DNA of 64,000 nt, taken from the IMG/VR virus record IMGVR_UViG_3300031999_001882, positions 32,001 to 96,000 of that record; one strand, given 5' to 3'. Positions within the stretch are counted from its first letter, which is position 1, and each line of letters begins with the position of its first letter. Of the stretch, positions 14,505-38,111 are shown one piece after another. The notes below the pieces were generated by a model. That model ran no database searches. It saw nothing but the letters and a program-made list of their open reading frames with translations, and was not told where the DNA came from. This DNA comes from a virus. A program made the translations under genes and the position numbers.

Positions 14505-15767
14505 TCAGTTCTTTGAAGCGAAGATGATGTCACAGTATTGGAACACATAAGTTCCTAATGCTGACGACATTCCAGTATCGCTTTGATTGCCAGTGCCCGG
14601 AGAATCCGCACCAGAATTTGCTGTATCTGAGCCAGCCGTTAAGTAATAAGGAATAGGCGCGGCGACGGCGATTCCAGCAACCCCTTGCACCCAATAGTTG
14701 TAGCTACGAGTGACAAATCCGTGAGGCCAACTATTCGCCCCACCGTTGGTTGGAAAAAAAATCTGCGCCCCAGACAAGCCTTGAGCCGTTTCATGTTGAT
14801 GGCTAATCGTATGTGAGTGAGAATTAACCCCGTGTGTGTGATTATTCTCAGTGTGAGTATGAGAATTAACCGTATGGGTATGATTATTCCCAACGTGACC
14901 ATGAGAAAGGCTGATCCCGGCGCTTGGAGAAGATGATCCGCCTGTTCCGCCTCCTGCTCCACTAACAATCCTCAAATGTCTGTCATTAAGAGATACGACC
15001 TGCGTCCATCCAGAAGGAGGCGAAGCCATGTAAAACACCTGCACGGTTCCTGTCTGGTTGAATCCAATGCCGGACCCGGAGAATGAGGACAAGTTAATCC
15101 GGTCTTGCTTGACGGAGCCAGCCGTTAATCGCTGGCCGTTGATGTCGTAATCCACCGTTTTCTGACGGAATGGCACAGGAAATAAACCGACGACCATCAT
15201 GGCACTGTCAGCAAAATATGACCCGATCTGAACTTCGCCCGCAATCATCTTAAAGACGTTGATTTTCAGGTAAGTAGCGCTTGTCGAAACGATCTTGGTG
15301 ACATTTAGCGTCTGATAAACACCGCCGCCCGGATGATAAAGGCTGAACGATTCCGAAACGCCGTCGTCGATAGAAATACGAGTGGCGCTTGAAAGAGAGC
15401 TATAAATACGAGCAGACAAGGACAACGTAATACCCAGAAAGCTTTTATGGTCAAGCGTCTGATTCATCGCAAAAACAGCGTCGGCAGTTCCGGCGTTAGT
15501 CACGACAATCTTCATCGCGTAATTGCCTGTGTCGATCTGTGCGCCAAGATCACCTATGGCGGCGCGATTGATATTGACCTGCGGCAATGTTGAGCCTGTT
15601 TTAGCGACCAGCCATGAGTCCAGCGTCTCCGCGCCATTGGCGGGGTTGGTGTAGGTCGCTCCGCTATTAGCTTGATCGACCTCCATCCCTCCGTTCGAGA
15701 GGAGGTTTTCGTGTATACCGTAGCCTTTTACGCTACCGTTTGTCCCAACTTCCCATAAAAGTCCCAT
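14505..15767 (-). CDS. Tail fibre: CBM-like domain, collar-like segment and HxH-repeat tip
   Basis: NLL.NGGMEV.Q domain; F.MASPPSGW collar motif; repeated HTH/HSH. Confidence 0.75.
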   Translation of the reverse strand: MGLLWEVGTNGSVKGYGIHENLLSNGGMEVDQANSGATYTNPANGAETLDSWLVAKTGSTLPQVNINRAAIGDLGAQIDTGNYAMKIVVTNAGTADAVFAMNQTLDHKSFLGITLSLSARIYSSLSSATRISIDDGVSESFSLYHPGGGVYQTLNVTKIVSTSATYLKINVFKMIAGEVQIGSYFADSAMMVVGLFPVPFRQKTVDYDINGQRLTAGSVKQDRINLSSFSGSGIGFNQTGTVQVFYMASPPSGWTQVVSLNDRHLRIVSGAGGGTGGSSSPSAGISLSHGHVGNNHTHTVNSHTHTENNHTHGVNSHSHTISHQHETAQGLSGAQIFFPTNGGANSWPHGFVTRSYNYWVQGVAGIAVAAPIPYYLTAGSDTANSGADSPGTGNQSDTGMSSALGTYVFQYCDIIFASKN

Positions 15768-15790
15768 AGCTCGTTCTCCTTAATCAGTTT

Positions 15791-16198
15791 TCAGAATCCT
15801 TGCAAATTTAAGAACGGAACGCCCTGAATCGTGCATTCATCGACGAGAATTTCAGTCGCCAAAACCACCTGCGTCCCGGTATCTGTCAGCCCGCCAAAGT
15901 CCGTCAGACCGCGCATGGTCGCCACCGCCGCCACTTCTTCAACAGGCAAGGTCATCATCTTGAGGTAATGGAGATATTGCGACTTGGGGCCGCCCGCCAT
16001 CGGATATCCGGTGATGGTATGGCAGGTCTGGCATTCCACGGCGATCTGGGTATAGCTGGTGATTCCTCCTGCCGTCGCAAACGGAAGCGTTAAAACATCG
16101 ACGGCGGCGCTGATTCCGTCATTGTGCGAAACATCGACGGTATAGCCGCCAACGTCGGTCATATTATTCAAATAAACTGTTTGTGGTGGCATCTTCAT
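15791..16198 (-). CDS. Hypothetical protein (135 aa)
   Basis: AGGAGG RBS; in the fibre cluster. Confidence 0.7.
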   Translation of the reverse strand: MKMPPQTVYLNNMTDVGGYTVDVSHNDGISAAVDVLTLPFATAGGITSYTQIAVECQTCHTITGYPMAGGPKSQYLHYLKMMTLPVEEVAAVATMRGLTDFGGLTDTGTQVVLATEILVDECTIQGVPFLNLQGF

Positions 16199-16231
16199 GT
16201 CCTCCTGAAACGATTTTATCCGTGCCGCAAA

Positions 16232-16393
16232 CTATCCTTGGGAGGTGGCCGCCTTCCATTCTTCCTCTGTAATATATTGAATACTGGTGTCGCCGAGTTC
16301 AGCCAAAAGCGCCGCTACCGTATCTTGATCCATCCCGTCATACGACGAATAGCAATCTGAACCATTGCGTGTTGATTTCACCCAGATTTTCAT
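16232..16393 (-). CDS. Small protein (53 aa), possible fibre chaperone, not in ORF track
   Basis: TAATG overlap; MKIWVKSTRNG...YITEEEWKAATSQG*. Confidence 0.55.
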   Translation of the reverse strand: MKIWVKSTRNGSDCYSSYDGMDQDTVAALLAELGDTSIQYITEEEWKAATSQG

Positions 16394-16797
16394 TATCGTA
16401 TCCTTATCGCGCTGAGTTGTCCGGCTGTGTTAAAAGTTCCAGATACAAACGCCGCCACAAGATAAACCGTTGTTGTGTTGGCAAATTTAAGATTTCTGAA
16501 AACCCTGCCGCCGCCGGGGAACGCAGGGAGAGCTTGCGAGCTTCCGCCATCCGTAACTCCGGTAAAAGAAGCTGAGTTAAGCGAAATCGCCATCTGACTA
16601 CCTGCTACTACAGTTGCGCCGCATGAGAATCCGGCGTGAACAAACCAGTTTCCTGCCGTCAGAGAAATACTCCCAACATTTGATGCAGAAGATGAAACAG
16701 AAGCGCTCTGAAAGTTGCCCTCTATCGTCTCACCGACATCGCCTAGTTTTGCGCTATCGCTAACCGTCGTGCCTTTTGCTGGAATGTTAAAGCTCAT
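16393..16797 (-). CDS. Small beta-sandwich fibre-head protein
   Basis: ATGA overlap at 16794-16797; G.VGE.I, SISLTAG.W, TTVYLV...AIRIR. Confidence 0.65.
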   Translation of the reverse strand: MSFNIPAKGTTVSDSAKLGDVGETIEGNFQSASVSSSASNVGSISLTAGNWFVHAGFSCGATVVAGSQMAISLNSASFTGVTDGGSSQALPAFPGGGRVFRNLKFANTTTVYLVAAFVSGTFNTAGQLSAIRIR

Positions 16798-18653
16798 AAG
16801 AGACTCCATTCTGCGCCGTTATACATCATGCTGACGGAACTGTAGACTGACTGAATAATGAAGTTGGTCAGACCGTCAATAGTTCCTGTCGCTGGCTGAA
16901 TGACAATGAAATTGGTCGCCGCATCGCCTTTGCCATCCTTGATGAACAACTCCTCACCTGTGATGGGCGACGACGGCAAATTGACGAAGGTTGACGATCC
17001 AACTGTTTTATTCACGACTACATAAAGGTCTGTCCCGGCTAAGGTCACCGAGCTACCCGATGTTACGATTCTCACCGAATTGGCAAGGTTGGATCGCAGA
17101 ATCGGATCGGTATTACCAACCGAGTGCGTTGCGGCATGGGCGAAGTTCGGAGCCACGCCCATACTGATAAAGGTGATGTTTTCACCCACCGAGCGTCCGG
17201 TCAGAAAGGTGACCGACGAATTGCTGGTTTCGGTGTAATCTGACCCCAGCACCATGAATACGCCGCCTGAATACACGAACAGGCCGCCAGACCCCACCGC
17301 ATAAGAAATGTTGAGCGGGAACACCGTCTGACTGGCCGTTGCCACAATGGTCTGCTTCTGGATCATGTTGGCCGTTACGCCATTGGACACCCGGTAGAAG
17401 CTCATAACCGTCGCATTGAGCGGCGGCGGAGTCGTCATGGTGAAGCCGGGAAGGGCTTGGCTCTCAAAGAAGTCCACTCCGTTCTTGAGAACCAGTCCGT
17501 TGCGAGTCACAAAGAGCGACCCGGAAACGAACGTCTCCGGCATGGTATAGGTGATGTTCGAGGCATCCACCGCACCCGTGGGGGTGATATTGTCGCGCTG
17601 GAAGGCCCCGGTATTGAACGGCAGGATCGTGGACGGAAATTTGAAGAAAGCCAGCAATGTATCGGTTGACGCTGGCGCAACCGTCATTGTGAATCCCATC
17701 AACCCTGTGGCTTCCGTAAAGTCCACGCCATTTTTGAGGAGAAGGCCGTTGCGTGTGACGCTAAGCGTTCCCGGCACAAACTGGTAAGGAAGCGTAAAGA
17801 CCGTGTTAGAGCTGTTTTGCGTGCCGGACGGCGATACCTGAACCTTGGTCATTTCGCTGGAAGCGATGGTCGCGTTCCATGTCAGGCCGTCATAAAAAGC
17901 AAAGGTCTTGAGGTCTGTCCGGTAAAACGGCTGGCCCGCGAGCGGGACCGGAACAGTCGTGTAGGTCGTGCCTGTGTTGAATGGAATAGTGATCGGATCA
18001 GCGCCGCCGGAGTTGTGCGTCGATCCATGAGCGAAGTTGGGCTGGATGCCCTGAGCCACGAAGGTGATGATCTCACCCAACTGCCGACCGCTTGTGAAAG
18101 TCACGGAGGTTGAATTGGTTTCCAGATAATCGGTGGTGAGCGCTTGGCGCAAACCGCCCGAATAAGCCGCCAGCGCTCCTGTGCCTGTGGCATAAGAAAA
18201 TCCGAGATTGAACACCAACTGCCCAGAGGTTGCTACAAAAGTTTGAATGTTTTGCGTCGGAGACACGACGCTGGCTGTCAGCGCATAGAACGCCAAAAGA
18301 GTTGATCCGGCAAGCGGCGCTGGCGTAACGGTAAAGCCGGGGATTTGGGGTTGCTCAAAGAAATCCGCACCGCTCTTGAGCACCATACCGTCTCGCGTGA
18401 CCCAAAGAGTTCCTGCCGAAAATTGCTCAGCCAGCGTATAAGTGAGGTTCACTCCATCGGTCGCGCCTGTTGGGACAATCTCGCGCCGATCCAGAACGCC
18501 GCCGCCACCCGATCCTGTGACGAGATTCCATTGCGTCCCGTCGTAGGTATAGAACAGGTTATTGGTCGTGTTGTAGAAAAGCTGACCTTCCTTGAGGTCG
18601 GTGACCGGAAGGCTGGCTCCGGCGATGTCGATTTCTGGTCTTAAAATTGCCAT
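16794..18653 (-). CDS. Multi-repeat virion structural protein (fibre adaptor/platform candidate)
   Basis: Five related ~65-aa beta domains, two GQ.FY.T....YDG..W motifs, two H..TH..G..DPI motifs. Confidence 0.7.
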   Translation of the reverse strand: MAILRPEIDIAGASLPVTDLKEGQLFYNTTNNLFYTYDGTQWNLVTGSGGGGVLDRREIVPTGATDGVNLTYTLAEQFSAGTLWVTRDGMVLKSGADFFEQPQIPGFTVTPAPLAGSTLLAFYALTASVVSPTQNIQTFVATSGQLVFNLGFSYATGTGALAAYSGGLRQALTTDYLETNSTSVTFTSGRQLGEIITFVAQGIQPNFAHGSTHNSGGADPITIPFNTGTTYTTVPVPLAGQPFYRTDLKTFAFYDGLTWNATIASSEMTKVQVSPSGTQNSSNTVFTLPYQFVPGTLSVTRNGLLLKNGVDFTEATGLMGFTMTVAPASTDTLLAFFKFPSTILPFNTGAFQRDNITPTGAVDASNITYTMPETFVSGSLFVTRNGLVLKNGVDFFESQALPGFTMTTPPPLNATVMSFYRVSNGVTANMIQKQTIVATASQTVFPLNISYAVGSGGLFVYSGGVFMVLGSDYTETSNSSVTFLTGRSVGENITFISMGVAPNFAHAATHSVGNTDPILRSNLANSVRIVTSGSSVTLAGTDLYVVVNKTVGSSTFVNLPSSPITGEELFIKDGKGDAATNFIVIQPATGTIDGLTNFIIQSVYSSVSMMYNGAEWSLL

Positions 18654-18671
18654 ATCATTCCCTCACAAGCG

Positions 18672-20609
18672 TCAATAATTGCCGACTCGATTTATCGTAA
18701 CCCAATTAAAAATTGCGCTAGTCATCAGAGTTCGCGTTCCTTCGTTCTGATAACAGACAATGTGAATGTAATCCCCCGCCAGAAGGTTGACCAATGTTTC
18801 TCCGTGGATATTCCGATAGAATGTCTGCGTCGCGTCAATAACTCTAATGTCCAATCCGGCATAGTCAGACCCATTTTTCCTTAGCCTCAGTTCGGTATCT
18901 TTCCCGACGGTAAATGAAAGGTTATCCCATGTAACTATTGAAGATACTCGGTACACGCCGGAAATCGGAGCCGTAAACTTCCAGCCTGTGCCAGTCGTAA
19001 CAGCTCCGTGGCTATCGAAGTCTTTTGTCTCAAAATCAACAGTCGTGAATGAGGTCGTCGGAATAGATTGTCCGGCGGCTGTTTTATATCGGCATTGGAC
19101 GCTTTCCGTCGCCGCAATCTGGGAGGGGCCGGAGAGACGTTCGATATTGATGCAAGTAATTCCCGGCGAGTTCCCATCTCCCCGAAGCAACTCAGACACG
19201 CTTAGGTTTTGATTCACGCGAATGTCGATCACGTCTCCGGCGTTGAACAGTCTCAAGAAGTTGTACGCACAGCAGGCCGCCGCCGACGAAGCTCCTCCCT
19301 TACCTTGCGCTTGGCAGGATACCGACACGCCATTAACGTAGAGAAATGCGTTCACGTTTCCGACGTTGGTGGTTGTTCCAAAATAAAGATTCCCGCTTAT
19401 CTTGTAATAACCCGACACAGGAATCGTGTAGTTGTTGTTTGAGGAACTGAATTTTCCGTGCGTGTCTCTGTTGACGGTATCAAATGGAACTTTTACGTCA
19501 GACCCGCTCGCAATTCCCGTGGAATTCGATGAGAATGTCGCCTGAGCCGCCACCACGCGAGTATCCGCGTTATCCGACATGACCGTGGTGGTCCCCCACC
19601 CGACGATGGGAACGATAAACTGTGCAGAGATAATGTCGCCAGATACCCATGCCCCGCCGGGATAGGTGTTATCCCATTGATTCCCGGTTGTTGGACCCAT
19701 AAATTCAACTTCTCTTGCGGTCACGGATTTAAGAACGCATACGCCCACGGGAGTCGTTGGAGCGTTTGTTCTCGAACATTTTACAGTACCGACTTCTTGA
19801 ATCACGTTAGCCGAGGTTGCCTTGGAGAAGTCGATGGTATATCCAGCAGGGATGGCAACATTGATCTGGCCGGAGGCGTTCCCGTTGGCTGTCAGAAGAA
19901 CATTACACTCCATCGAATCACCCACTCTGCGCCAGAATCCAAGCGATGACGTGACGGGAATGTTCGACCACGTTGGCGTGTATGCCTTCCAGTCCGTGAC
20001 GGGGCTTCCCATCACCGCATACGAAGGGCCGACGCTGAAATTATCGACCTTGACCGTGCTGGCGACGGCGCTGGTTGTATTATTGTGAAGGATCAGCCGA
20101 TAGCTGGTGGAATTGGGTGATGATTGAAAGGAGGCCGCAAACTTCTCGATCACCAGCACCTTGGACAGCGTATAGGGCGCGGCTTGGATCAGGACTCCGT
20201 TGGTGACATCGTAAATCCAGATGTTGATAGACCCATCAACGTAATTGGCATCCGGCAAATAATCGAAGCTGATAAAAAGAGGCTTGGCTTGGTCCGCCGG
20301 GTCGATGGAAAATGCGTAGCTCACTCCATTTCCCAGACGATTCGCGGCATCCTTGGTCCAGAGGAATGATCCGGTTCCGCGCAAAGGCGAGCTAGTGGTG
20401 CGGGTCCATGTCAGGACTGGACTGCCGCCCGTTCCATCAACGGGAAGCGCCGCCCCGTCATCGTATGTAGCCCAGCCGGAGGTGTCCGTATCGGCTGACG
20501 GATTGAGGATGTAATTCTTTCCACCACCGCCTGTGCTGACGTTGGGATCGAGCTTGGAGGCGGTGATCGCCTGAGCCGCGATGTCGATTGACTGAATTTG
20601 GGTTGCCAT
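18672..20609 (-). CDS. Receptor-binding protein with CBM-like domain and two C1q-like domains
   Basis: VPFDT...DTHG.F...YTIPVSGYY and VDFET..FDSHG...FTAPISGVY; GD.I motifs. Confidence 0.75.
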   Translation of the reverse strand: MATQIQSIDIAAQAITASKLDPNVSTGGGGKNYILNPSADTDTSGWATYDDGAALPVDGTGGSPVLTWTRTTSSPLRGTGSFLWTKDAANRLGNGVSYAFSIDPADQAKPLFISFDYLPDANYVDGSINIWIYDVTNGVLIQAAPYTLSKVLVIEKFAASFQSSPNSTSYRLILHNNTTSAVASTVKVDNFSVGPSYAVMGSPVTDWKAYTPTWSNIPVTSSLGFWRRVGDSMECNVLLTANGNASGQINVAIPAGYTIDFSKATSANVIQEVGTVKCSRTNAPTTPVGVCVLKSVTAREVEFMGPTTGNQWDNTYPGGAWVSGDIISAQFIVPIVGWGTTTVMSDNADTRVVAAQATFSSNSTGIASGSDVKVPFDTVNRDTHGKFSSSNNNYTIPVSGYYKISGNLYFGTTTNVGNVNAFLYVNGVSVSCQAQGKGGASSAAACCAYNFLRLFNAGDVIDIRVNQNLSVSELLRGDGNSPGITCINIERLSGPSQIAATESVQCRYKTAAGQSIPTTSFTTVDFETKDFDSHGAVTTGTGWKFTAPISGVYRVSSIVTWDNLSFTVGKDTELRLRKNGSDYAGLDIRVIDATQTFYRNIHGETLVNLLAGDYIHIVCYQNEGTRTLMTSAIFNWVTINRVGNY

Positions 20610-20610
20610 C

Positions 20611-21492
20611 TTACGCTACCTCCGCCGTCCAAGAAGCATCTTGAGCATTGCCCCATGAAACTGGCGTTCCGCCAGTTGTTATAAATGTCACATTAAATCC
20701 TTTTGCCGTTATCCCATCTGACGTAGCGCCAGTTGACATATTAGATGGCGTTCCGTTTGTAACGGTAACCGTTGGAGTTGCGCTCTTTGCTGTCATAAAA
20801 GTCAACGGCAAATGCACCGTCATAGATGCGCCGTTAAAAAACTGCCAATGAATCCCCGTTCTTGCCTCGTAATATCTCATGCACCGCGCCAGATCATCCG
20901 CCGGGTGCATCGGGATATAGCTGACGGGCTGGCTTCCAACGACCAGCATGGCAGAATCAAGGTTGTAGTAAAATGCAGAAGTGTTCCCATCGTTAATTGA
21001 CCCCGCATAAATACGCAATATCGTGGCGGCGGCTGAAACGACACAAGTGATTGACAAAGTTTCCCAATTTCCGCCACCTGTGTGATATGCGTCTGCCGTA
21101 TATCCATCCCCTTTATAAATTCTTATCCCGACTTTGTTTCCTCCGAGATTTGATTTCATGCGGATTGACAACGTAATGGTTTTCCCGCGATACGAAATCA
21201 CATTCTCGATATCCGTAATCATGTTGAGAATCGAATCAGACGCAACAACTGTAAAATTTGCCTTCAAAGAATAAAGCCCGTTATCGACAACTGACGCATC
21301 TTGTGTAACGGTATAAGTAGGAAGCGTGCCCGACTTATTTGTTTTCCATCGGTCGGCAGTAGTGGTCTGATCGGCTGGATTTGTAAAGGTGACCCCCCTC
21401 TGCCACACTTCGTACCCCGGATTGACGAGCAAATTCACCTGTGGCGCGAGCGCCGCCGCGAAGTCTTGATCTGGAATGAGTTTGGTTACCAT
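20611..21492 (-). CDS. CBM-like fibre protein (1 module)
   Basis: NLLVNPGYEVWQRG...ADRW...DSAML...DLARCMRYYE. Confidence 0.75.
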   Translation of the reverse strand: MVTKLIPDQDFAAALAPQVNLLVNPGYEVWQRGVTFTNPADQTTTADRWKTNKSGTLPTYTVTQDASVVDNGLYSLKANFTVVASDSILNMITDIENVISYRGKTITLSIRMKSNLGGNKVGIRIYKGDGYTADAYHTGGGNWETLSITCVVSAAATILRIYAGSINDGNTSAFYYNLDSAMLVVGSQPVSYIPMHPADDLARCMRYYEARTGIHWQFFNGASMTVHLPLTFMTAKSATPTVTVTNGTPSNMSTGATSDGITAKGFNVTFITTGGTPVSWGNAQDASWTAEVA

Positions 21493-21501
21493 AATTTCTC
21501 C

Positions 21502-21669: not shown

Positions 21670-21679
21670 AGATTCCTCT

Positions 21680-23191: not shown

Positions 23192-23205
23192 AAATTTTCA
23201 ACCTC

Positions 23206-23271
23206 CTATGGAAGTATGACTTCATCTGTGACCGCCGGATCAATAGCTCTCTTGGTGACGATAGTTCCCAT
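23206..23271 (-). CDS. 21-aa micro-ORF MGTIVTKRAIDPAVTDEVILP, paralogous to the N-terminus of the next gene
   Basis: AAGGAG RBS; fills the intergenic gap; matches MGTIVPSRAIDP. Confidence 0.55.
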   Translation of the reverse strand: MGTIVTKRAIDPAVTDEVILP

Positions 23272-23280
23272 AAATTCTCC

Positions 23281-24816: not shown

Positions 24817-24828
24817 GTCAATTCACCC

Positions 24829-26307: not shown

Positions 26308-26322
26308 CGTTGGCTCCTCAGT

Positions 26323-29300
26323 TTACACCGCAAAAATGCCGCTTGCCATAATTTGACTCGTACTGGCTGGGACAAAGGTAAACTTAATTTTGAGTTGGTT
26401 CGCCAGATACGTCGCTGTGTAATCGTTTAATGCTCCCGATGTCCTCAGAACGCCATTGATGAACACCGATTCTTCTCCGCTTGTCGGCGTGCTCGAAGTG
26501 CTGAATGCAAAAGTGTCCGTGATCCCATCCGGTGCGCTGACCGGAGAGACATTCACGAAATGAGCGTGGCTGGCCGCTCGAACTTCGGTCGCCAACTGCG
26601 TCAGGCCCACCGCTCCAACAGCAATCTTGGGCTGGGTGACGTTCAAATCCCTGATCTTGGCCGTGATAACCGATTGATCCTCAAACTGAGTCAGCCCTAC
26701 CGCTCCGGCGGCGATTTTGGGCATGGTGACGTTCAGATCACGGATTTTTGCCGATGTCACCGATTGGTCCTCGATCTGGGTCAAACCGACCGCGCCATTG
26801 GCGATCTTGGCCTGAATGACCGACAAATCACGCAAAAGGGCGCTGGTAATGGCCTGATTCTGGATTTCGGTCGTACCCACCGCGCCAGAGGCTATCTGAG
26901 CCTCGGTAACGGCCTGATTTGCGATCTTTCCGGTGGTTACGGCCTGATTCTCCAACTGCGTGATTCCGACCGCTCCTACCGCAATTTTGGCGTTTGTGAC
27001 CGCCAAATCAGCGATCTTGGCCGATGTCACCGCTTGATTCTCAAGCTGAGTGATGCCGACGGCTCCGGTCGCAAGCTTGATCTGAGTCACGTCGCCGTCG
27101 CGCAGGGCGGCGGTCGTGACAGACTGGTTCTCAAGCTGGGTCACCCCCACGGCTCCGACGGCAATCTTGGGATTTGTCACGGCAGAATCGGTTATGTTGG
27201 TCGAAGTGACGGCGTTTACGGCCAGTTTCGGGTTTGTCACCGCCGAATTGGACAGTTCCAGCGTGTCCACGGCGCTGGGGGCGATGTCCACGGCAATGAC
27301 CGTTCCATCGGCGATCTTGTCTGAGGTGACCGAGTTCGGAGCGAGCTTTGAATTGGTCACAGCCAGATCACGAATCAGATTCGAGATAATGGCTTGAAGC
27401 TCAATCTGCGTCACGCCAATGGCTTGATTGGCGATCTTGGCCTGAGTCACGGCCAGATTGGTGATGTCCGTGGTTCCGACTACCCCGGTAGAAGCGGTAG
27501 TGACCCTTCCAAGACTGTCCACGGTGATGTCGGACAGGCGATATGAACCGGGAATAACCGAAGTCCCTGCCTCAAGGGTCGTCAGTCCATTAAGCTCAGA
27601 AGCCGTCAGGTGGTAATACTGCTCGAATGTCCCGCCTTGAAGTCCGGCCAAATCATTATGTCGCGTGATGAGCGGCGTATGAAAGTGAGAATAATTCGTC
27701 AGCCCATCATGCGTCATGCTGATTGTGATGCTGGAACCCGATGTTGTCCGGCCATAATATCGGACAGATAATCTATCGGCAGAATTCCATCCGGTATAAG
27801 CGGGCTGGGTGGTCAGGACATTTTCAAGAGTAACGGAAGTATCGTTGATGTCCTGCGTCAAAGTGTTGAACAAATGCCGATGAATGCCGTAAGCCACGCC
27901 GGACTCATTGAGATATCCGCCGGGAGTCGCCACGGTGACGACTGACGGCGACGTGAACCCTGTGATCTGAAATGTCTGCGTGGGAGTTTCGACGTATCCC
28001 GATAACGCCATATCAGCATTGGCATTGCCCGCCACAAACGGCGTAGCGCCAGTTATCGTCGCCGTTCGACTTGTCCCTGACCCAGAAATAGCGACTGTTC
28101 CCACGCCATCAGACTTTCTCAAAACCTGAATGACAATCGTAGATGTTCCGCCTATGCCGCTAACAAACCGATAAACGTCAAACTCCCAGAGTCCGGCATC
28201 AAGCTGAACTCTCCCCAAAGCGGCAGAGAGATACCCTTCAATCAGCGCCGTAGAAGCGCTGACAACAGCGCTATCCGTCTGCTCCGCTCCGGCATTAGGG
28301 ATCGGAGAAATGGTGAAGTTCCCATCCGTAGAAGGCACGTCATTGAGAAAGAACACAATACCGGAACCAGCCGATGTGTTAACCGGATTTCCGTTAATCC
28401 ACGCCGCTCCGTTATAGGAAAGGACTTGGTTGAGGGCAGGATTGGCAAGCGAAACATCGCTCAACTGAGACAGATTCAAGTTGAGGACATCCACCTTGAT
28501 CGCATTGGAGATGCCTTGTTCCGTGATAGAAATGGCTGGACCGCCAACGAAGTTGACGTTATCGGTCAGCGTCAACCCGCCATAAGCGGCTACTGTCTTA
28601 ACGACTTGGCCCGAAGCGATCTTATCCGCCGTCACAGCGCTGGCGACCAACTTGGAATTGGTCACGGCAGAATCCGTGATGTTGGTTGTGGCGACTGCAT
28701 TGACGGCCAGCTTGGGATTTGTAACGGCGGAGTTCGACAACTCTAAGGTATCGACAGCGCTGGGAGCGATGTCTGCCGCGATCACCGTTCCATCAGCGAT
28801 ATTGGCTGAGGTGACCGCCCCAACACCGATCTTGCTGTTGATGATCGAGCCATCCTGAATCAGAGCGGAGGTAATCGACTGGTTCTCAATCTGAGTCGTG
28901 CCAACGGCGGCATTGGCGATCTTGGCTTGGGTCACCGCCAGATCGCGGAGCTTGACCGTGATGATCGACTGATCTTCGATCTGCGTCAGCCCTACAGCGC
29001 CGGACGCGATCTTGGGCATGGTCACGGCGAGATCGCTGAGCTTCGCCGTGATGACAGACTGATCTTCGAGCTGAGTCAAGCCAACTGCGCCACTAGCAAT
29101 TAAAGACTGCGTGATGGCCGAGGTCTGAATGTTTCCGGTAGCCACCGAGTTCAGTTGCAGATTACCGTTGGCGACTGACAGCGCCGCGAGCTTGATGTTA
29201 GTGACGGACCCATCCGCTAGGGCGTTGGTTGTGACAGCCTGATTCTCAATCTGACTGATCCCTACCGATCCGACAGACAGATGGAGCTGAGTGATAGCAT

Positions 29301-30207
29301 TGATCTGAATGGCGAGGCCCGGAATCGAACGCGGTCCAAGGACAGGCGTAATCGTGGTCAGACCATTCACGATGTCATAAATCTGCGACTCAAGTGGACG
29401 GACCAATATCGCGTTGCCGACATTGTTTAGAATCGGATTAGTGTAAATATCCTTGGCGAGCTGATTGATATTCAATACTTCGGTGACATCAACCGTTCCA
29501 GTAAAGAACTTGTCATCGGCGGCAAACGATTCATCAACGGTGTTCATGTTATAGCGTTGGAGATACTGCCAGTCCATCATCGTCAATCCGTCAGGGAGCG
29601 GAGTGATGGTCTGAGTCATTCCAACTGCTTGGGTATAAAAAGTCACGAACCATTGCGTTATGCCCGGATAATCAAACGTGATCCGTCCAAAAACTTCAAG
29701 AGAGTTTGTGACTTCTGGAAGTCCTGAATAAGAATTTCGGATTGCGACTGCGTTCTTTGGCTCATCCGATAGAATGCCCTCATTGGTTCCATAGGAGCTG
29801 ACGGGAGGAGTTGTCAGACCAACAATCGAAGTGACCTCAACAAAGGTCAGGCCCGGAGCCACCGCATAGGCGTTGTTCTGAACGTAGGCGGTGATCTTCT
29901 TATATTGGAGGACGGCTTGCTTGGCTGTAGTGTCAAGCTTAGGCCCGGTCACAGCGCTATCAGCAATCTGGTATTGCCCGACGGAGTTTGTGCCAAGCTT
30001 CGCCATCGTGATCGAGCTGTCCTCAATCTGCGTGGTTCCTACGGCTTCATTAGCGATCTTGAGCTGAGAGACAGACAAGCTACCAAGCTTGGGATTGGTA
30101 ACGGCAGAATCCGTCAACGCATTTGTAGTGACGGAATCCGTCGCCATCTTCGGGGCCGTTACCAGTCCGTCTTTGATGTCATCCGTCTGAATATATGTTC
30201 TTGCCAC
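26323..30207 (-). CDS. Long tail fibre (1294 aa) with decapeptide-repeat shafts
   Basis: Dozens of (A/S)V(T/G)..(K/Q)(I/L) repeats, central HNDL.GLQGG...YYHLT motif, C-terminal socket-like domain. Confidence 0.85.
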   Translation of the reverse strand: MARTYIQTDDIKDGLVTAPKMATDSVTTNALTDSAVTNPKLGSLSVSQLKIANEAVGTTQIEDSSITMAKLGTNSVGQYQIADSAVTGPKLDTTAKQAVLQYKKITAYVQNNAYAVAPGLTFVEVTSIVGLTTPPVSSYGTNEGILSDEPKNAVAIRNSYSGLPEVTNSLEVFGRITFDYPGITQWFVTFYTQAVGMTQTITPLPDGLTMMDWQYLQRYNMNTVDESFAADDKFFTGTVDVTEVLNINQLAKDIYTNPILNNVGNAILVRPLESQIYDIVNGLTTITPVLGPRSIPGLAIQINAITQLHLSVGSVGISQIENQAVTTNALADGSVTNIKLAALSVANGNLQLNSVATGNIQTSAITQSLIASGAVGLTQLEDQSVITAKLSDLAVTMPKIASGAVGLTQIEDQSIITVKLRDLAVTQAKIANAAVGTTQIENQSITSALIQDGSIINSKIGVGAVTSANIADGTVIAADIAPSAVDTLELSNSAVTNPKLAVNAVATTNITDSAVTNSKLVASAVTADKIASGQVVKTVAAYGGLTLTDNVNFVGGPAISITEQGISNAIKVDVLNLNLSQLSDVSLANPALNQVLSYNGAAWINGNPVNTSAGSGIVFFLNDVPSTDGNFTISPIPNAGAEQTDSAVVSASTALIEGYLSAALGRVQLDAGLWEFDVYRFVSGIGGTSTIVIQVLRKSDGVGTVAISGSGTSRTATITGATPFVAGNANADMALSGYVETPTQTFQITGFTSPSVVTVATPGGYLNESGVAYGIHRHLFNTLTQDINDTSVTLENVLTTQPAYTGWNSADRLSVRYYGRTTSGSSITISMTHDGLTNYSHFHTPLITRHNDLAGLQGGTFEQYYHLTASELNGLTTLEAGTSVIPGSYRLSDITVDSLGRVTTASTGVVGTTDITNLAVTQAKIANQAIGVTQIELQAIISNLIRDLAVTNSKLAPNSVTSDKIADGTVIAVDIAPSAVDTLELSNSAVTNPKLAVNAVTSTNITDSAVTNPKIAVGAVGVTQLENQSVTTAALRDGDVTQIKLATGAVGITQLENQAVTSAKIADLAVTNAKIAVGAVGITQLENQAVTTGKIANQAVTEAQIASGAVGTTEIQNQAITSALLRDLSVIQAKIANGAVGLTQIEDQSVTSAKIRDLNVTMPKIAAGAVGLTQFEDQSVITAKIRDLNVTQPKIAVGAVGLTQLATEVRAASHAHFVNVSPVSAPDGITDTFAFSTSSTPTSGEESVFINGVLRTSGALNDYTATYLANQLKIKFTFVPASTSQIMASGIFAV

Positions 30208-30219
30208 GGTAGTCTCCCC

Positions 30220-30987
30220 TTAGATCGGATTGTAATTCAGTAAAATTTTACTCGTTGAAGCCGGAGCAAACGTAAAGCTAATTCCATTCAACCCGAACAA
30301 TGTGTAATCCTCGGCTACGCCTGAATTTCGCATAACTCCGTCAATAAACACTTCTTCTGATCCAAACACAAAATTGTCCGGCGCAGTAAACTGATTATTA
30401 AAGCCATCAATGAAGCCAATGGCGAATTGTCGATATTTCCGATTGATCGACCCGCCCGTGACATCAAAAATGAATTTGTTGTTCGGCGAGTCCTGCGTAA
30501 TGGTGATGTTGCTCCCTGCCGCCAGCACCAAATCGCCCTGCAATCCAATGATCGCTCCGACCACAGCCAGCGTGTTGACACCTGACGAAACCGCTCCGCC
30601 GGGACCACCCAAAAACGAGCGCGTATCCACCACCGAGATGACGTTGGCTGGACCTGTGAAAACACGCGCCAACGGCACAGACAAAGCCGGAAACCCGGAG
30701 ATGTTCGAGGTGACCACGCCGATGTTAGAAACAAGCACAAAGTTCGTTGAATTCGCCACCATCGGAATCGTCGTCTGTCCAAGAAACGGAAAGACGTTTC
30801 CGCCGATCTGCACTTGGCCGGGATTAACGGTGACATTCAGCCCACCAGAAGCCTGAACCTGTAAAGCGACGTTGACCGATGCCAGTTGATCCGCAATGTC
30901 GAAGTTTCGGCGCAAAGGAGCGTCCCAATTTTGATCTCCGTGTGCTGGTTCTTCGTATCCAGCGTTAGGTGTATAAGTGCTCGCCAT
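30220..30987 (-). CDS. Baseplate-proximal fibre/adaptor protein
   Basis: N-terminal TPN.G...P..G..NW...L..NF..D anchor-type motif; C-terminal DG.N..F...VF.DG...DY domain. Confidence 0.7.
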   Translation of the reverse strand: MASTYTPNAGYEEPAHGDQNWDAPLRRNFDIADQLASVNVALQVQASGGLNVTVNPGQVQIGGNVFPFLGQTTIPMVANSTNFVLVSNIGVVTSNISGFPALSVPLARVFTGPANVISVVDTRSFLGGPGGAVSSGVNTLAVVGAIIGLQGDLVLAAGSNITITQDSPNNKFIFDVTGGSINRKYRQFAIGFIDGFNNQFTAPDNFVFGSEEVFIDGVMRNSGVAEDYTLFGLNGISFTFAPASTSKILLNYNPI

Positions 30988-30993
30988 GTTTGG

Positions 30994-31695
30994 TTACCCC
31001 AATATCCTCGAAAGTTTGCTTTCGTCAGCAAGGTCGTGTTGCCAGATGATTTTGCAATCAAAGCCGAACTTCTTGTAATGATTTTTTAGCTTCATTGAAT
31101 CATCGGCTCTGAACACTTTTTTGCAATGCTTTTTGCATCCATGCCAATAGCATCCAAGCAACTCAATTACTTCTTTTTTCCCGTTGATATTTATAAAATC
31201 TGGATTCTTTTTCGCAATCCAAACTTGCCCATCGCCAACATATTTATACGGCAAAGATTTTGACCTCAAAAATACCGCAAGAGCATTCTCTGATCCATTT
31301 GGCTTATTTTCGGAAAATAGCCTCTTAAACCACGCCTTTTTTTCTCTCAGACTTAACGAAGAATGAAATCTTTTTGATGCTTCGCCTATTTTTTCTCTTG
31401 TTGATCGACTAGGGCCATTTTTATTCCGAGCGATCAGCCCTTCTCGCAACCACGGCATTTTTTTGTGCATCTCAAAATTTCGCATCGAAATCGCTCGTCT
31501 TTCTTCCGGCGAAACCGTTGGCCTCCACCATCTGCCATGCTTCTTATAATACGCCTTTGAGCTTTTTGACATTTTTAGCCGCGTGACCTCAGAATGATGA
31601 CTGCCAACACGATGATGCTGTTTCAACGAACCAAGCCATTCTTTTATCGCTTGGCTCATTTTTGCACGATGCTCCGGCGTTCTAATGTAGCTCAT
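30994..31695 (-). CDS. Homing endonuclease: NUMOD3-like repeats plus Vsr/EDxHD-like nuclease
   Basis: HSEVTRLKMS, TREKIG; PDF...IELLGCYWHG; ATGA overlap at 31692-31695; more AT-rich than neighbours. Confidence 0.8.
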   Translation of the reverse strand: MSYIRTPEHRAKMSQAIKEWLGSLKQHHRVGSHHSEVTRLKMSKSSKAYYKKHGRWWRPTVSPEERRAISMRNFEMHKKMPWLREGLIARNKNGPSRSTREKIGEASKRFHSSLSLREKKAWFKRLFSENKPNGSENALAVFLRSKSLPYKYVGDGQVWIAKKNPDFININGKKEVIELLGCYWHGCKKHCKKVFRADDSMKLKNHYKKFGFDCKIIWQHDLADESKLSRILG

Positions 31696-33062
31696 GCCAT
31701 GATTACAATGGTTCCTACGGTATCTTTGACCGTTTTCACTTGTCCATCGGATATATTCAACCATCGCCGACCGGGGAACAGCTCGATTGCCAATGGATCG
31801 CTGTGCCGAACCTCGGTATTATTTTCCCCAGCCAGAGGCCGCAAATCCTTGGCTGACCTTGAAGCTGAATTATCTGGATTGCGAATGTTCCCGCCGCCAC
31901 CTGCCGGGTCAAACGGCAACCAACTGACTGCGAACAAGGGCAGGAAATGATTGCTGTTAATGATGTTCACATAATCGGTGGTAATAGAAACATTGCCGCC
32001 ATTGTCCAAATAACCGTAATACAGGTTAGTTGCCTGTCCTAAAAAAGTGATCGTGACAGGGTTTATCCCAGCCATGACATCCGCAGAACCCTTGCGAATA
32101 CCGTTAACATACGCCGACTCGGTGTTCAGCAAATTATTGATGTTGATGAAATCATTGCCCGGATCAACCACGATAACCTGCGGAAACAACGCCGACAAAA
32201 CGGTGGCAACATCCTGCGTTTCGATTTTATTGTTCTGCGTCTCCTTGGCGTACAGCTCGTTCAAAGGCTCTAAACTCGACACCACGCCTAAGTCTGCCAG
32301 CGTCAGTCCGTGCGGGTTGACGGGCGTAAGTATCAGAGCAGTCCCTCGCGCTTTGATATGGTCATCTACCGTATGAAGCTCAGCCCCACCATATACCGTC
32401 ACGGCATCCGAGCGGTCATCCTTGGGAGTCTTGACTTTAACCGTGTTAAACTTGGTCAGTGCATACTGGCGATTAGTCAGACTGATATTAGATGGAGGAA
32501 TGGGATTTCCCGCGCCCTGCCCCAGCACCGTTCCCAAAAAAACGGCATTGGTAAGTGGATTAGAGACGGGGTGATGTGTCGTATCAACGATAATCCAATA
32601 ACCGTCTGTGTCACGGGTGAAAAACTTTTCAGAGGTGATCGGATGAATGGCGAACTGCGTTATGTCGATGGTTTGAAGATACTGAATCCAGAAATAATTA
32701 GCCGTTCCTGTCGTGTAATTGGCGAGAGAAATAGCGATACTCCCGGTGGATTGTGGTGTGGGCTTCCCAGACGAAATATCGGTCTTGGAGGGATTGGTCG
32801 GGTCATAGAGCACATTGGAAGCAATCAGAATGCGCTCCCCGCTTGAATAGGACACGCCAAAGCCAACGTCAATCTTGGTCTGATCGAGGATGTTCGGAGA
32901 AAGCGGATATTCCAGCGATCCGCCTGTTTCCGAGTGAACGATCCCATCCTGAATAAAGTCCGTGAGGCGTTCTTTGATCGCTTCCTGAGTAAACTCACTC
33001 AGCGATGTGTTGAAATCCTCGACGGCGGGTTCTATCCCAGAGGCAAGTAAAAGTCCCTTCAT
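31692..33062 (-). CDS. Baseplate/fibre-anchoring structural protein
   Basis: Position after wedge gene; NPHG.T..DLG motif. Confidence 0.6.
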   Translation of the reverse strand: MKGLLLASGIEPAVEDFNTSLSEFTQEAIKERLTDFIQDGIVHSETGGSLEYPLSPNILDQTKIDVGFGVSYSSGERILIASNVLYDPTNPSKTDISSGKPTPQSTGSIAISLANYTTGTANYFWIQYLQTIDITQFAIHPITSEKFFTRDTDGYWIIVDTTHHPVSNPLTNAVFLGTVLGQGAGNPIPPSNISLTNRQYALTKFNTVKVKTPKDDRSDAVTVYGGAELHTVDDHIKARGTALILTPVNPHGLTLADLGVVSSLEPLNELYAKETQNNKIETQDVATVLSALFPQVIVVDPGNDFININNLLNTESAYVNGIRKGSADVMAGINPVTITFLGQATNLYYGYLDNGGNVSITTDYVNIINSNHFLPLFAVSWLPFDPAGGGGNIRNPDNSASRSAKDLRPLAGENNTEVRHSDPLAIELFPGRRWLNISDGQVKTVKDTVGTIVIMA

Positions 33063-33108
33063 AATAGCGCTCCCACTTTGAGTCGGTTTTCCATATCAGA
33101 CTCCCAAA

Positions 33109-34227
33109 TCATGTCGTAAATACCATTTCCACCTTCGAGTTCGCCGGGATCAACTGGATCACCAACTGCTTGAGATAATCCTGATCGAGCGTCACGCCGA
33201 AGCTGTTGTAAACCGTCAGAATAAACGCATGAGCTTTCTCTGCCTTGGAATAAATAACGATGACAGGACTCAGGTTCGGATAAGCTGGGTCTTTCAAATA
33301 ATAATGCGGTCGATTGGGTTCAGGATCGGTCTTGATAAAAATGCGCCATCCTGTCAGTGACCCGATCTCGGTGATGTCCGGCTCACGACAAGTAAATACC
33401 TTGACGATCCGTTTGACAGCTCCGAAAGTTCCAGAGAACTCATAGGCATCCTTGAGCTGAATGAGTTGTTCGCGGTACTCTTGGAGGGTCTGACTGCGCT
33501 GGGTGAAGCTATAAAGCGTACCGAAGTTATTGTAGAGGGATTCGTCGCGCACAGACACCAAATAAATATCGCGCCTCGCCCTCAGAGCCTCAAATCGCAA
33601 CTCTTCGATCTGGCGTGCGTATTCGTGCGCTAAGACATAAGCGTATGTGCTGTTGACATCCTTAGAATAGACGTTCTCATCAGGATACGTTTCAAAGATT
33701 CGGGTGGTTATTTCATTTTTCGCGCTTGCGTCCCGTGTCAACGTCTGACTGTCCGTCCAAGGACTTTCCAGAGTTTGACTCAATACACGGACCCTCCAAT
33801 AATACGGAATGGATTGATTTTCAGCTCGAATCGGAAACGCGATCTCATATGCGATAACAAGCTGACCCTCACTAAATCCTACAAAGCCTCTAGACCCCCC
33901 GGCAAATCCTCCGATGCCAAATCCGTCCTCTCCGAAGCCGCCAATGCCAAATCCAGTCACCGCATCGGCCCCATTAAAGCACCGCAGGTTCGGGCTGTCG
34001 AAGTTGGCCGAGGTATCAATGCACAGCTCAAAATCATACGCATTGAACGGCGCAGGAAGCCCGCCGATACAGTCCGTACAACAATCCAGCGTCCAGAAAA
34101 AAACATAAGCATTCTCAGAAGTCCCAAGGTACGACCGAGGATTAAGCGGACTCGGCACAAACAGCTTGGGCGAGAAGTTGGTGTTAAAAAGACTGGTGTT
34201 GAATTGAGCTGTATTAAATAAGGCCAT
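33109..34227 (-). CDS. Baseplate wedge protein (gpI-like C-terminal half)
   Basis: L..NFG, YR..L...GT..AVK, IPANS C-terminus; downstream of baseplate J. Confidence 0.65.
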   Translation of the reverse strand: MALFNTAQFNTSLFNTNFSPKLFVPSPLNPRSYLGTSENAYVFFWTLDCCTDCIGGLPAPFNAYDFELCIDTSANFDSPNLRCFNGADAVTGFGIGGFGEDGFGIGGFAGGSRGFVGFSEGQLVIAYEIAFPIRAENQSIPYYWRVRVLSQTLESPWTDSQTLTRDASAKNEITTRIFETYPDENVYSKDVNSTYAYVLAHEYARQIEELRFEALRARRDIYLVSVRDESLYNNFGTLYSFTQRSQTLQEYREQLIQLKDAYEFSGTFGAVKRIVKVFTCREPDITEIGSLTGWRIFIKTDPEPNRPHYYLKDPAYPNLSPVIVIYSKAEKAHAFILTVYNSFGVTLDQDYLKQLVIQLIPANSKVEMVFTT

Positions 34228-34230
34228 GAC

Positions 34231-35424
34231 TTAGCTGATCGCCTCCCACGAAGCGTCTGCGTTTCCTCCCAGAAGCACCTCGCCGATAATGCTCGGCGTG
34301 ACAACCAGATTAAACCCATTGGCGTTGGCAGAATCCGCGCTAACGCTTGCGACGTTAAGGTTCCCTGTGCCAGCACCAACATTCACAACCGGAGAAGCCA
34401 GCGCCTTACGGCCAGAGAAATGAATCGGCAGATAATAAGGGTTGGTACTGGACGCATAGAAGCGCCACCGCAGATTACTCTGTCGTTCGTAATACCGGAG
34501 ACATCGGTCCACATCGGCAGAGGTCGGAAACGGCTGATAATCCATCGGCTTAGAGCCGTTCACCAATATAGCCGAATCCACAAAAATGTCACTCAAACTC
34601 GGCGAAATGTCCAAAAACCCAACTCCAATAATGAGCTGGGTCGATGCACCCGGAACGGTATAAGTGCAAGTCAGTCGTTGCCATGTTCCGCCGCCCACAT
34701 GGGCCACCGAAAGCGACGTGGCCGGAGTTCCGTTCGAGATGAACGCTTTGATACCCGGTACGCTCGAATTGATCCAGACTGAGAGCGAAACGATCTTTCC
34801 GATGTAATCTTTATAGTTCTCAACGTATTGCCGGATGGAGAACGTCGTCGCTCCGCCCGTGGCTGTGATTTGGTTTTCCAGCGAATAGCTCCCAAGATTC
34901 ACGACTGTAGATCGACTAACAGTAAAAGTCGGCGTATTGGTGTAATTAGCGACCCAGCGATCCGCCAGATATTGCGTATCCGACGGCGGATTGAGGATAA
35001 CTAGCGCGTTTGACCAGCATTCCAAGCCCGGATTGACAAGGAGATTCGGGTAAGCATTCAGCCGAATTCCATTGATGAGATCGTCCTCAGTCGCCTCAAT
35101 CTCGTTCTTGAGGACGTTATGGTGAGCGGCGACGAATTCCAAACTGACCGCCACGCCGCTTACATGAGTCGTAGCCTGCGTATTGTCGTAACCTCGCGTG
35201 TACCCGGTCAAATTATTGCCGATAATTGAGGTATAGCGGATCACCTCGTTCTCAATAGTTACAACGCCAGAAACCGGGAAATTGACCGTTGATATCAGAG
35301 CGATGCCATTGCCCACCGTGTTATCGCCGGATGTATTCAGGTTCCCGTTTAACGTCGTAGCAAGATTGTTAAAAGCCGGGAGGAGAGAGGTGTCATCCGC
35401 GACGGAGTTAGGATAAATTGCCAT
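34231..35424 (-). CDS. Structural protein with CBM-like module
   Basis: FP.SG...I.NE.I.Y...RG...T.A..H..G domain then NLLVNPG...ADRW...DRCLRYYE; AGGAG RBS. Confidence 0.75.
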   Translation of the reverse strand: MAIYPNSVADDTSLLPAFNNLATTLNGNLNTSGDNTVGNGIALISTVNFPVSGVVTIENEVIRYTSIIGNNLTGYTRGYDNTQATTHVSGVAVSLEFVAAHHNVLKNEIEATEDDLINGIRLNAYPNLLVNPGLECWSNALVILNPPSDTQYLADRWVANYTNTPTFTVSRSTVVNLGSYSLENQITATGGATTFSIRQYVENYKDYIGKIVSLSVWINSSVPGIKAFISNGTPATSLSVAHVGGGTWQRLTCTYTVPGASTQLIIGVGFLDISPSLSDIFVDSAILVNGSKPMDYQPFPTSADVDRCLRYYERQSNLRWRFYASSTNPYYLPIHFSGRKALASPVVNVGAGTGNLNVASVSADSANANGFNLVVTPSIIGEVLLGGNADASWEAIS

Positions 35425-38108: not shown

Positions 38109-38111
38109 AAA

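Follow-up and report, generated by a model that had tools for sequence, protein, structure and literature searches.

To our knowledge, the mounting of several receptor-binding proteins (RBPs) on one virion is understood in detail for only a few groups of cultured phages, all of which have T4gp10-like branching domains. In anchor-branch systems, the RBP genes are clustered and the secondary RBP docks on a domain of the primary RBP or of an adaptor by means of a short conserved N-terminal peptide (7-11 residues in the K1-5/SP6 type) (PMC6872550); peptide and branching domain have been shown experimentally to be specific partners that are needed for the incorporation of the second RBP, RBP2 (PMC13352976). 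The 'rope' or hub proteins of the podophages A1002, GP4 and VP1 present a row of docking sites, at which separately encoded fibre units are held by beta-sheet augmentation (PMC13730344). Here, we describe a fibre gene cluster at positions 14505-35424 of a 64,000-nucleotide (nt) window, i.e. bases 32001-96000 of the 144,307-bp IMG/VR record IMGVR_UViG_3300031999_001882 (estimated 83% complete); coordinates are those of the window unless stated otherwise. The genes of the region are all on the minus strand; about a dozen of them code for fibre proteins, which make up the receptor-binding apparatus of an uncultured myovirus of ~170 kb.

We propose that the products of this cluster form a non-covalently assembled, multi-headed adsorption apparatus, in which short N-terminal peptides (leaders) of some fibre proteins dock into a repeated beta domain of ~70 amino acids (aa), d65, on others. 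The probability that we assign to this reading is about 0.6. What we infer from the inventory of domains and their folds, the similarity among the leaders, the co-occurrence of the parts across phages and one docking model is the binding itself, the pairing of clients with sockets and the docking on internal d65 copies. Four recurring parts build the fibres: an 11-residue shaft repeat, a ~185-aa jelly-roll head that resembles carbohydrate-binding modules (CBM), a ~90-aa C-terminal beta-sandwich that opens with a 'CxRYYE' helix, and d65. An anchor domain is lacking in most of the head-bearing proteins, which have just a leader of 12-20 residues directly before the head or shaft. The proteins and domains concerned are listed here in the direction of transcription, with E-values of hidden Markov models (HMM) where a d65 is given.

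34231-35424, minus strand: anchored short fibre of 397 aa, with an N-terminal domain of ~120 aa, a CBM module (residues 122-315) and a 'CxRYYE' C-terminal domain
30220-30987, minus strand: 255-aa hub, with an anchor-type N-terminal region and a C-terminal d65 at residues 183-255 (30223-30441; HMM 2.3e-28)
26323-30207, minus strand: long shaft fibre of 1294 aa, with the leader MARTYIQTDDI, 11-residue 'xVTxxKIA' shaft repeats, two globular inserts and a C-terminal d65
26326-26562, minus strand: the C-terminal d65 of the 1294-aa fibre (residues 1216-1294; HMM 1.2e-21), used as the modelled socket
24829-26307, minus strand: client fibre of 492 aa, with the leader MSRTFIQTQEIA (26272-26307, used as the modelled plug), shaft repeats, a CBM module (residues 218-400) and a C-terminal domain
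23281-24816, minus strand: anchor-less head protein of 511 aa, with a 19-aa leader (MAQTFVPSYLL...), two CBM modules and a C-terminal domain
21680-23191, minus strand: anchor-less head protein of 503 aa, with an 18-aa leader (MGTIVPSRAID...), two CBM modules and a C-terminal domain
20611-21492, minus strand: minimal anchor-less head protein of 293 aa, with a 19-aa leader (MVTKLIPDQDF...), a CBM module (residues 16-196) and a C-terminal beta-sandwich (residues 208-293)
18672-20609, minus strand: fibre of 645 aa, with a leader of two shaft-repeat units (MATQIQSIDIAAQAITASKL), a GGGG linker, a region of ~300 aa without an assigned family and two C1q/BclA_C-like domains
16794-18653, minus strand: 619-aa hub, with the leader MAILRPEIDI and five internal d65 (HMM 5.5e-21 to 3.6e-33)
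18270-18491, 18039-18263, 17628-17849, 17379-17600 and 17148-17372, minus strand: the five internal d65 of the 619-aa hub

The distribution of d65, i.e. five copies in the 619-aa hub and one at the C-terminus of each of the 255-aa and 1294-aa proteins, is exactly that claimed in an earlier note, which was made from the letters of this DNA alone, and the d65 HMM finds no further copies in the whole 144-kb record. Orthologs of the 619-aa hub contain 4, 5, 5, 7 or 9 copies. The motif 'PNFAHxxTHxxGxxDPI', followed by 'LFY/FYxT...W', occurs twice in the hub (residues 205-222 and 502-518), where it separates blocks of d65; in the orthologs, its number rises with that of the d65 repeats. The C-terminal ~95 aa of the hub resemble the N-terminal region of T4 gp34 (phrog_972, 8.8e-07, over a match of ~75 residues). 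The hub also matches phrog_25416 (1.1e-15) and has PF26696 as its precomputed annotation, and remote matches of d65 and of this protein lead to virion proteins of the Bacillus phages 0305phi8-36 and Mater.

A d65 profile built from the copies in the window and in soil phages hits the same residues as Pfam PF03906 and DUF4183 (PF13799) in the proteins P0167, P0173 and P0191. In P0167, for example, d65 at 371-429 coincides with PF03906 at 374-434 (34.4 bits, cut-off 25.2), and d65 at 293-355 with DUF4183 at 290-348. The window copies align to those of the soil phages by hhalign with E = 6.1e-05 and a probability of 65%, which is moderate support for homology, and a structure-based Atlas lead from d65 to PF03906 is weak (template modelling score (TM) 0.37). 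To judge from this transitive overlap of profiles, d65 is distantly related to the N-terminal anchor domain of the T7 fibre and to DUF4183. At the level of sequence, the d65 profile does not match T4 gp10 (hhalign probability 0.25%), and in PDB sequences it finds no gp10, CBA120 or G7C chain, its only match being a non-significant one to a distal tail protein (E = 0.56). PDB sequence searches with both hubs (30220-30987 and 16794-18653) and with the proteins at 31692-33062 and 33109-34227 return nothing at E <= 1.

The docking of a leader on d65 was modelled for one pair, picked by gene order and domain position: three copies of residues 1150-1294 of the 1294-aa fibre, which comprise the end of the shaft and the terminal d65, were combined with three copies of residues 1-100 of the 492-aa fibre. 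Multimer prediction had been put forward as a check in the earlier note, and for this pair it gives a score of 0.81 (0.79, 0.81 and 0.82 in the individual runs), compared with 0.00 for the best of three controls. The score mark was calibrated on single-chain pairs, of which 51 of 78 solved complexes and 2 of 108 mismatched ones reach it, so that the calibration applies only roughly to the present complex. The runs have at least 94% of their contacts in common, and the predicted local distance difference test score (pLDDT) of the partner is at least 89.

In all three copies, the modelled interface brings client residues 1-10 and 12 against d65 residues 1250-1256, 1260-1262 and 1277-1285, which are the conserved motifs INGVLRT, LND, TF, PA and TSQ of the domain. 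The terminal d65 of the 255-aa hub has nearly the same interface residues (IDGVMRN, AED, TF, PA and TSK), and the presumed clients of the two terminal d65 have a common leader, M[AS]RT[YF]IQT. Among the four terminal d65 of this phage and of its metagenomic relative G001, 8 of 17 interface columns are invariant, compared with 15 of 73 elsewhere in the domain. The internal copies of the 619-aa hub differ at the modelled interface positions.

Another line of evidence comes from related loci. A total of 79 loci were fetched with an alignment of the head module together with the 'CxRYYE' motif, a query with a single protein having matched nothing; since they were fetched through the head module, the survey is independent of d65. 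An iterated d65 profile was run on the 79 loci, and the following counts refer to 64 non-redundant ones, which are phylogenetically related.

d65 present: anchor-less head gene present in 11 loci, absent from 3
d65 absent: anchor-less head gene present in 3 loci, absent from 47

Thus, d65 and anchor-less head genes co-occur strongly (Fisher p = 1.5e-7, Spearman 0.78). Two of the three loci with d65 only are on contigs that end just after the hub, and the third has a downstream leader gene with a non-CBM head; in the three loci with an anchor-less head gene only, that gene carries a different N-terminus of 35-45 aa. The number of d65 copies matches the number of downstream leader-bearing genes at 4:4 in L067, at 3:3 in L053, L011 and L107, at 2:2 in L012 and L071, and at 1:1 in L022, L043, L079, L080, L040, L105 and L108. 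Some of these clients carry a non-CBM head behind the same leader. In L067, a protein of 869 aa starts with a leader and has four d65 of its own; therefore, a hub can itself be a client. A second survey used a narrower d65 alignment from the soil clade, the diverse one being too variable, and is accordingly biased towards one clade.

The earlier expectation that the number of sockets tracks that of plug genes is hence supported by the co-occurrence and by the equal counts in most other lineages, and holds only approximately in the lineage of the window. There, the 619-aa hub has five d65 in this genome, in G001 and in L112 (a metagenomic relative from a 145.9-kb contig), and exact equality was rejected, with 5 internal d65 standing against 4-6 candidate clients. 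The contigs that encode the hubs with 7 and 9 repeats (L091 and L092) end upstream, so that clients cannot be counted in them. Genes of ~90 aa (MTIPP.../MTMPP...) follow non-CBM clients at L067:9706-9987, L053:14668-14946, L054:4161-4442 and L108:3925-4197; they are candidates for fibre assembly chaperones.

The leaders themselves resemble each other. A Shine-Dalgarno-like motif lies 5-9 nt upstream of all seven starts listed above, including that of 23281-24816. The relatedness of the seven N-termini, as proposed in the earlier note, is borne out by a mean pairwise BLOSUM62 score of 8.5 over residues 2-11, compared with -3.8 +/- 1.4 for random sets from the same genome (reached in 0 of 5000), a figure that overstates the case because the seven were picked for looking alike. 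The score is 6.7 without the two obvious paralogue pairs (0 of 5000), and shuffled leader peptides give -0.8 +/- 1.2, with 0 of 3000 reaching the observed value.

The position of the leader can be read from relatives of the head proteins. In long relatives, the 11-residue shaft repeat ends in '..AVTNAKLGxDTARA' just before the 'NLL' ('NLLTNGGFE'), and the anchor-less relatives start with 'MxRQQVPNxELxxDTARA' at the same distance from the module as the last shaft unit. Because the anchor-less starts align with the final shaft repeat before the head, the leader is positionally the last shaft unit. When the N-termini of the genome were aligned to its own shaft repeat, 24829-26307 ranked 1st and 26323-30207 ranked 5th of 176 genes; in the CBM-led genes, the leaders have diverged so far that the likeness cannot be seen within the genome. 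With a position-specific score derived from external short-form leaders and applied to the same 176 genes, 20611-21492 ranked 1st, 21680-23191 7th, 23281-24816 9th and 24829-26307 12th, and 26323-30207, 18672-20609 and 16794-18653 were outside the top 25. The start of a soil-phage client, MTRTRILTTEIKDASVTGPKLA, is close to that of the long fibre of the window, MARTYIQTDDIKDGLVTAPKMA.

At the other end of the fibres stand the heads. A BLASTP comparison of the cluster proteins with each other and an HMM made from the module copies both place the ~185-aa CBM-like module eight times in six genes of the region, with domain E-values of 1e-65 to 1e-85: twice each in 21680-23191 and 23281-24816 (2.7e-76 and 1e-85 in the latter), and once each in 14505-15767, 20611-21492, 24829-26307 and 34231-35424 (2.5e-79). 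The earlier note had counted at least nine copies in seven genes. The eight copies in six genes stand, and the seventh gene, probably 18672-20609, is unsupported: its 'NYILNPS...W' stretch, the probable source of the claimed ninth copy, was rejected (hhalign probability 0.14% against the module profile). A ninth, diverged copy does exist in the record, 45 kb from the fibre cluster and outside the window, in a gene without an ortholog in the G001 record:

112787-113893 of the record (80787-81893 in window numbering; locus L111:2285-3388), minus strand: leader-bearing CBM head gene (MVTQLNPALDF...), alone among non-structural genes

An AlphaFold2 model of the minimal head protein, 20611-21492, was built with 66 homologues and has a mean pLDDT of 87.6; leader residues 1-17 are of low confidence and unstructured in the monomer. 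Residues 16-196 form a jelly roll of the CBM4/16/22 type, which matches 4bj0 (CBM4-2; Z 15.9, root-mean-square deviation 2.8, 161 residues aligned), 2zew (CBM16; Z 14.4) and 1h6x (CBM22; Z 13.4), with a Foldseek E = 8.9e-07 and a target-normalised TM of 0.76. The fold also occurs in phage RBPs, such as the C-terminal domain of CBA120 TSP4 (5w6h; Z 14.9), Tuc2009 BppA (5e7t_B; Z 9.8) and the Kp7 fibre. The beta-sandwich at residues 208-293 resembles the C-terminal domain of the LKA1 gp49 tailspike (Z 9.9). A Pfam scan of the cluster proteins found no CBM_4_9 or related family at E <= 0.1, and one sub-threshold CBM53 match (E = 0.015, in one protein). Both the fold and the position at the fibre tip suggest that the CBM-like heads may bind glycans. 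In the plug-and-socket reading of the earlier note, it is d65 that can be retained as the socket, given the model score of 0.81 and the survey, and the CBM module is to be placed among the heads.

At E <= 0.001, the family of the head comprises 4167 cluster representatives, and about half of the best 150 relatives are proteins of 280-325 aa, in which the module starts at residue 13-23. Such anchor-less proteins, with 13-23 residues before the head, have no visible means of their own of joining the virion, yet form a large conserved class.

Two of the head proteins, 21680-23191 and 23281-24816, are paralogues that are 44% identical in protein. Three near-identical DNA blocks lie at their domain boundaries (95.6% over 90 nt, 85% over 88 nt and 78% over 87 nt), and these fit gene conversion or cassette exchange of head modules. 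The following element belongs to the same neighbourhood.

23206-23271, minus strand: micro-open reading frame of 21 codons, MGTIVTKRAIDPAVTDEVILP, with its own AAGGAG motif

Apart from some synonymous differences, it repeats the leader that the next gene encodes (MGTIVPSRAIDP...). It is probably the scar that a duplication or deletion left behind when a paralogue was lost or recombined; alternatively, a free leader peptide could be expressed from it and compete for a socket. In G001 (L027), the head genes at 41883-42842, 39996-40943 and 37912-40017 have in common an in-frame '(L)(G/D)SRG(D/N)L' stretch just upstream of the likely ATG, which is probably a conserved ribosome-binding block copied along with the leader.

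In the assembly that we propose, a trimeric client would attach by its three leaders, which would enter a ring formed by three d65 of another fibre protein. The 255-aa hub, with its anchor-type N-terminus and terminal d65, would hold the 1294-aa shaft, and the terminal d65 of that shaft would in turn hold the 492-aa CBM-headed fibre, giving a serial chain similar to the T4 long fibre. The 619-aa protein would be a multi-socket hub, whose five internal d65 would hold the remaining leader-bearing heads as branches, and the short fibre 34231-35424 would attach directly through its own N-terminal domain of ~120 aa. The resulting virion would show many different glycan-binding heads.

Several observations weigh against this proposal. 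None of the seven d65 copies, whether scanned alone or within the whole proteins, has a Pfam match at E <= 10. The docking result comes from one pair with unrelated proteins as controls, and does not tell which member of the family binds. Furthermore, an internal d65 ring is inaccessible to a coaxial plug unless the repeats each form a trimer off the main axis, which makes the branching step the weakest link; T4 gp10 domains do form off-axis trimers of their own. Since the leaders are homologous by position to the last shaft unit, part of their similarity is inherited, and this similarity is by itself no proof of a plug. It should also be noted that, within the genome, a clear alignment to the shaft repeat is obtained with two leaders only, those of 24829-26307 and 26323-30207, so that a single leader family for all seven is not supported by this alignment. 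As for the counts, the candidate clients of the five-d65 hub number 4 in the cluster and 1 elsewhere in this genome, 5 and 1 in G001, and 3 and 1 in L112; L102 has 2 d65 against 2-4 candidate clients; the leader genes with non-CBM heads were identified by eye; and the related loci are not phylogenetically independent.

Alternatively, the cluster might have arisen by paralogue expansion and cassette shuffling only, the RBPs being independent and attached by another route, the leaders being leftover shaft units or recombination joints, and d65 being an Ig-like spacer or a weak adhesin. The correspondence of the leaders to the last shaft unit of long fibres would then be expected, as would the 44%-identical paralogues with common DNA blocks at their domain boundaries (up to the 95.6% over 90 nt) and the orphan leader at 23206-23271 that looks like a recombination scar; the variation of d65 from 4 to 9 copies among orthologs is of a kind often seen in decorative bead domains. 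We nevertheless consider shuffling alone unlikely, given that it leaves the large conserved class of head-only proteins with 13-23 leading residues no visible route to the virion, that d65 co-occurs with them (p = 1.5e-7), often in equal numbers, and that the complex model puts the leader on a conserved face of d65. DNA joints and docking are not mutually exclusive in any case: conserved boundaries would let heads swap behind a constant leader.

It is also conceivable that the fibres are joined in series only, into one long segmented fibre like that of T4, with the terminal d65 of the 255-aa and 1294-aa proteins as end-to-end joints and the five internal d65 as structural beads, without any branching. 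The modelled d65 is indeed a terminal one and is docked coaxially; the two terminal copies have nearly the same interface and their presumed clients nearly the same leader, with the internal copies differing at these positions; and the client counts around the 619-aa hub are inexact. What makes this arrangement rather improbable in our view are the other lineages, where hubs with 2, 3 or 4 internal d65 are followed by 2, 3 or 4 leader genes; since internal d65 counts equal leader-gene counts there, serial joints alone are insufficient. Finally, the anchor-less heads might not be virion parts at all, acting instead on the homologous heads of the long fibres, either as assembly chaperones or as glycan binders that are secreted or serve as decoys. 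Their genes usually come directly after that of a long fibre with the same head at its end, a place where genes for tail-fibre assembly are often found. However, the head modules of these proteins are complete and strongly diverged, and some of the proteins have two or three of them in a row; the ~90-aa genes after some clients look more like chaperones; and the leader docks on d65 in the model. Such a role outside the virion thus seems very improbable.

The docking of leaders on d65 may have a wider meaning, which we put forward tentatively and with odds somewhat short of even: d65 might be a general programmable strip, in which every repeat forms a trimer around an axis of its own and picks the leader that fits, so that the number of repeats (1-9 have been seen) would set the number of different RBP trimers. 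Hubs that are clients of other hubs would produce hierarchical trees; both the 619-aa hub and the 869-aa hub of L067 begin with a leader. This would amount to a second, independent solution to the branching of RBPs, widespread in uncultured phages of soil and aquatic habitats.

The genomic setting of the cluster agrees with the contractile baseplate assumed in the earlier note. Just upstream in the direction of transcription are genes for the tail sheath (phrog_2839, 1.2e-38), for a Baseplate_J protein (PF04865, 5.5e-25; phrog_6, 8.6e-36) and for a gp25/sheath-initiator-like protein; because of these genes, the region is identified as the fibre cluster of a contractile-tailed phage. PHROG tail-fibre families match the cluster proteins. 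The first fibre gene after the baseplate wedge genes is 34231-35424, which matches phrog_4492 (tail fiber, 3.5e-18) and has an ortholog in G001; 23281-24816 matches the same family (2.4e-51), and 26323-30207 matches phrog_892 (tail fiber, 4.4e-97) in 10 stretches. In 18672-20609, the tandem C-terminal domains are TNF-like (BclA_C 4.6e-08, C1q 2.1e-05); this gene has no ortholog in G001 and therefore encodes a lineage-specific head.

Megablast of the record finds no close cultured phage. The sheath is 28% identical to the sheaths of Bacillus phage G and Mycobacterium phage Myrna, and cultured phages in general yield only remote matches of 25-32% identity; hence, no characterised virion can serve as a reference. 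The metagenomic relative G001 is a 146.6-kb record, the baseplate J protein of which is 72% identical, and its ortholog of the 255-aa hub is 73% identical. Other genes of the region are as follows.

31692-34227, minus strand: two conserved proteins of 372 and 456 aa between the baseplate and the fibres (G001 orthologs 69-70% identical)
30994-31764, minus strand: homing-endonuclease-like gene within the cluster (NUMOD3 E = 0.0011, weak Vsr-like match, phrog_13076 endonuclease)
14505-16809, minus strand: distal genes for proteins of 138 and 135 aa and then one of 420 aa, with G001 orthologs

The 372-aa and 456-aa proteins (33109-34227 and 31692-33062, respectively) have no Pfam, PHROG or PDB sequence match and are candidates for peripheral baseplate or attachment proteins. 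The endonuclease-like gene sits between two cluster genes and its open reading frame overlaps the end of 31692-33062. G001 and L112 have no such gene at the same position, which suggests a recent insertion; the gene does not belong to the fibre machine. The 420-aa protein (14505-15767) consists of an N-terminus of 20 aa, one CBM module (HMM 2.3e-67) and a His-rich tract. This dense HxH tract, HGHVGNNHTHTVNSHTHTENNHTHGVNSHSHTISHQHE, follows the module and presumably resembles the metal-binding HxH repeats of fibre tips of the T4 gp12/gp37 type.

How, then, does the cluster compare with described systems? Like the anchor-branch systems of Klebsiella phages (KP32, K11 and KP34), of K1-5/K1E/SP6, of G7C (gp66-gp63.1) and of the Menlow/CBA120 type, it has clustered, anchor-less secondary RBPs with a short leader. 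The sockets and heads are different: the anchor-branch socket is a T4gp10-like domain, whereas the candidate socket here is d65, of the T7-anchor/DUF4183 type, which occurs in 1-9 tandem copies and can be C-terminal; and the anchor-branch heads are beta-helical depolymerases, whereas those of the cluster are jelly rolls of the CBM type. Pfam scans, which are a comparison of sequences, reveal no T4gp10-like (D2/D3) domain in any cluster protein, and the cluster is placed outside the anchor-branch family because this defining domain was sought by sequence and not found.

With the T4 long tail fibre (gp34-gp35-gp36-gp37), the cluster would have in common that separate proteins are joined end to end, as in the modelled joint of the 1294-aa and 492-aa proteins. 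In contrast to that fibre, the cluster proteins gave no match to gp35, gp36 or gp37, the joint would be made of d65 and a 12-residue leader, and the further heads would need lateral attachment. Like the rope proteins of A1002, GP4 and VP1, one protein would offer many docking sites; in the rope systems, however, one or two proteins form dimeric fibres, which are wound on an extended dock domain of the podovirus nozzle protein, whereas here discrete d65 domains would receive different trimeric RBPs on a contractile tail. PF03906 itself is the part that anchors the T7 fibre to the tail and is called the 'anchor domain' by Latka et al. (PMC6872550). In T7 gp17, it is present once, is N-terminal and is itself the attached part, whereas d65 is internal or C-terminal, is repeated, and is proposed to receive other fibres.

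Taken together, the cluster and its metagenomic relatives point to a different docking pair, namely a leader of one shaft unit and a repeated domain of the T7-anchor/DUF4183 type. If this is confirmed, the copy number of d65 would allow the architecture and the valency of adsorption machines in uncultured phages to be predicted from the genome by a simple rule, and it would become clear why there are so many puzzling tail-fibre genes that encode a head only, a class of thousands of protein clusters. The idea can be tested with small recombinant fragments, for which culture of the phage is unnecessary. The principle would be that of the known anchor-branch systems; new would be the socket family, its readable and variable copy number, the CBM heads and the wide spread in uncultured phages.

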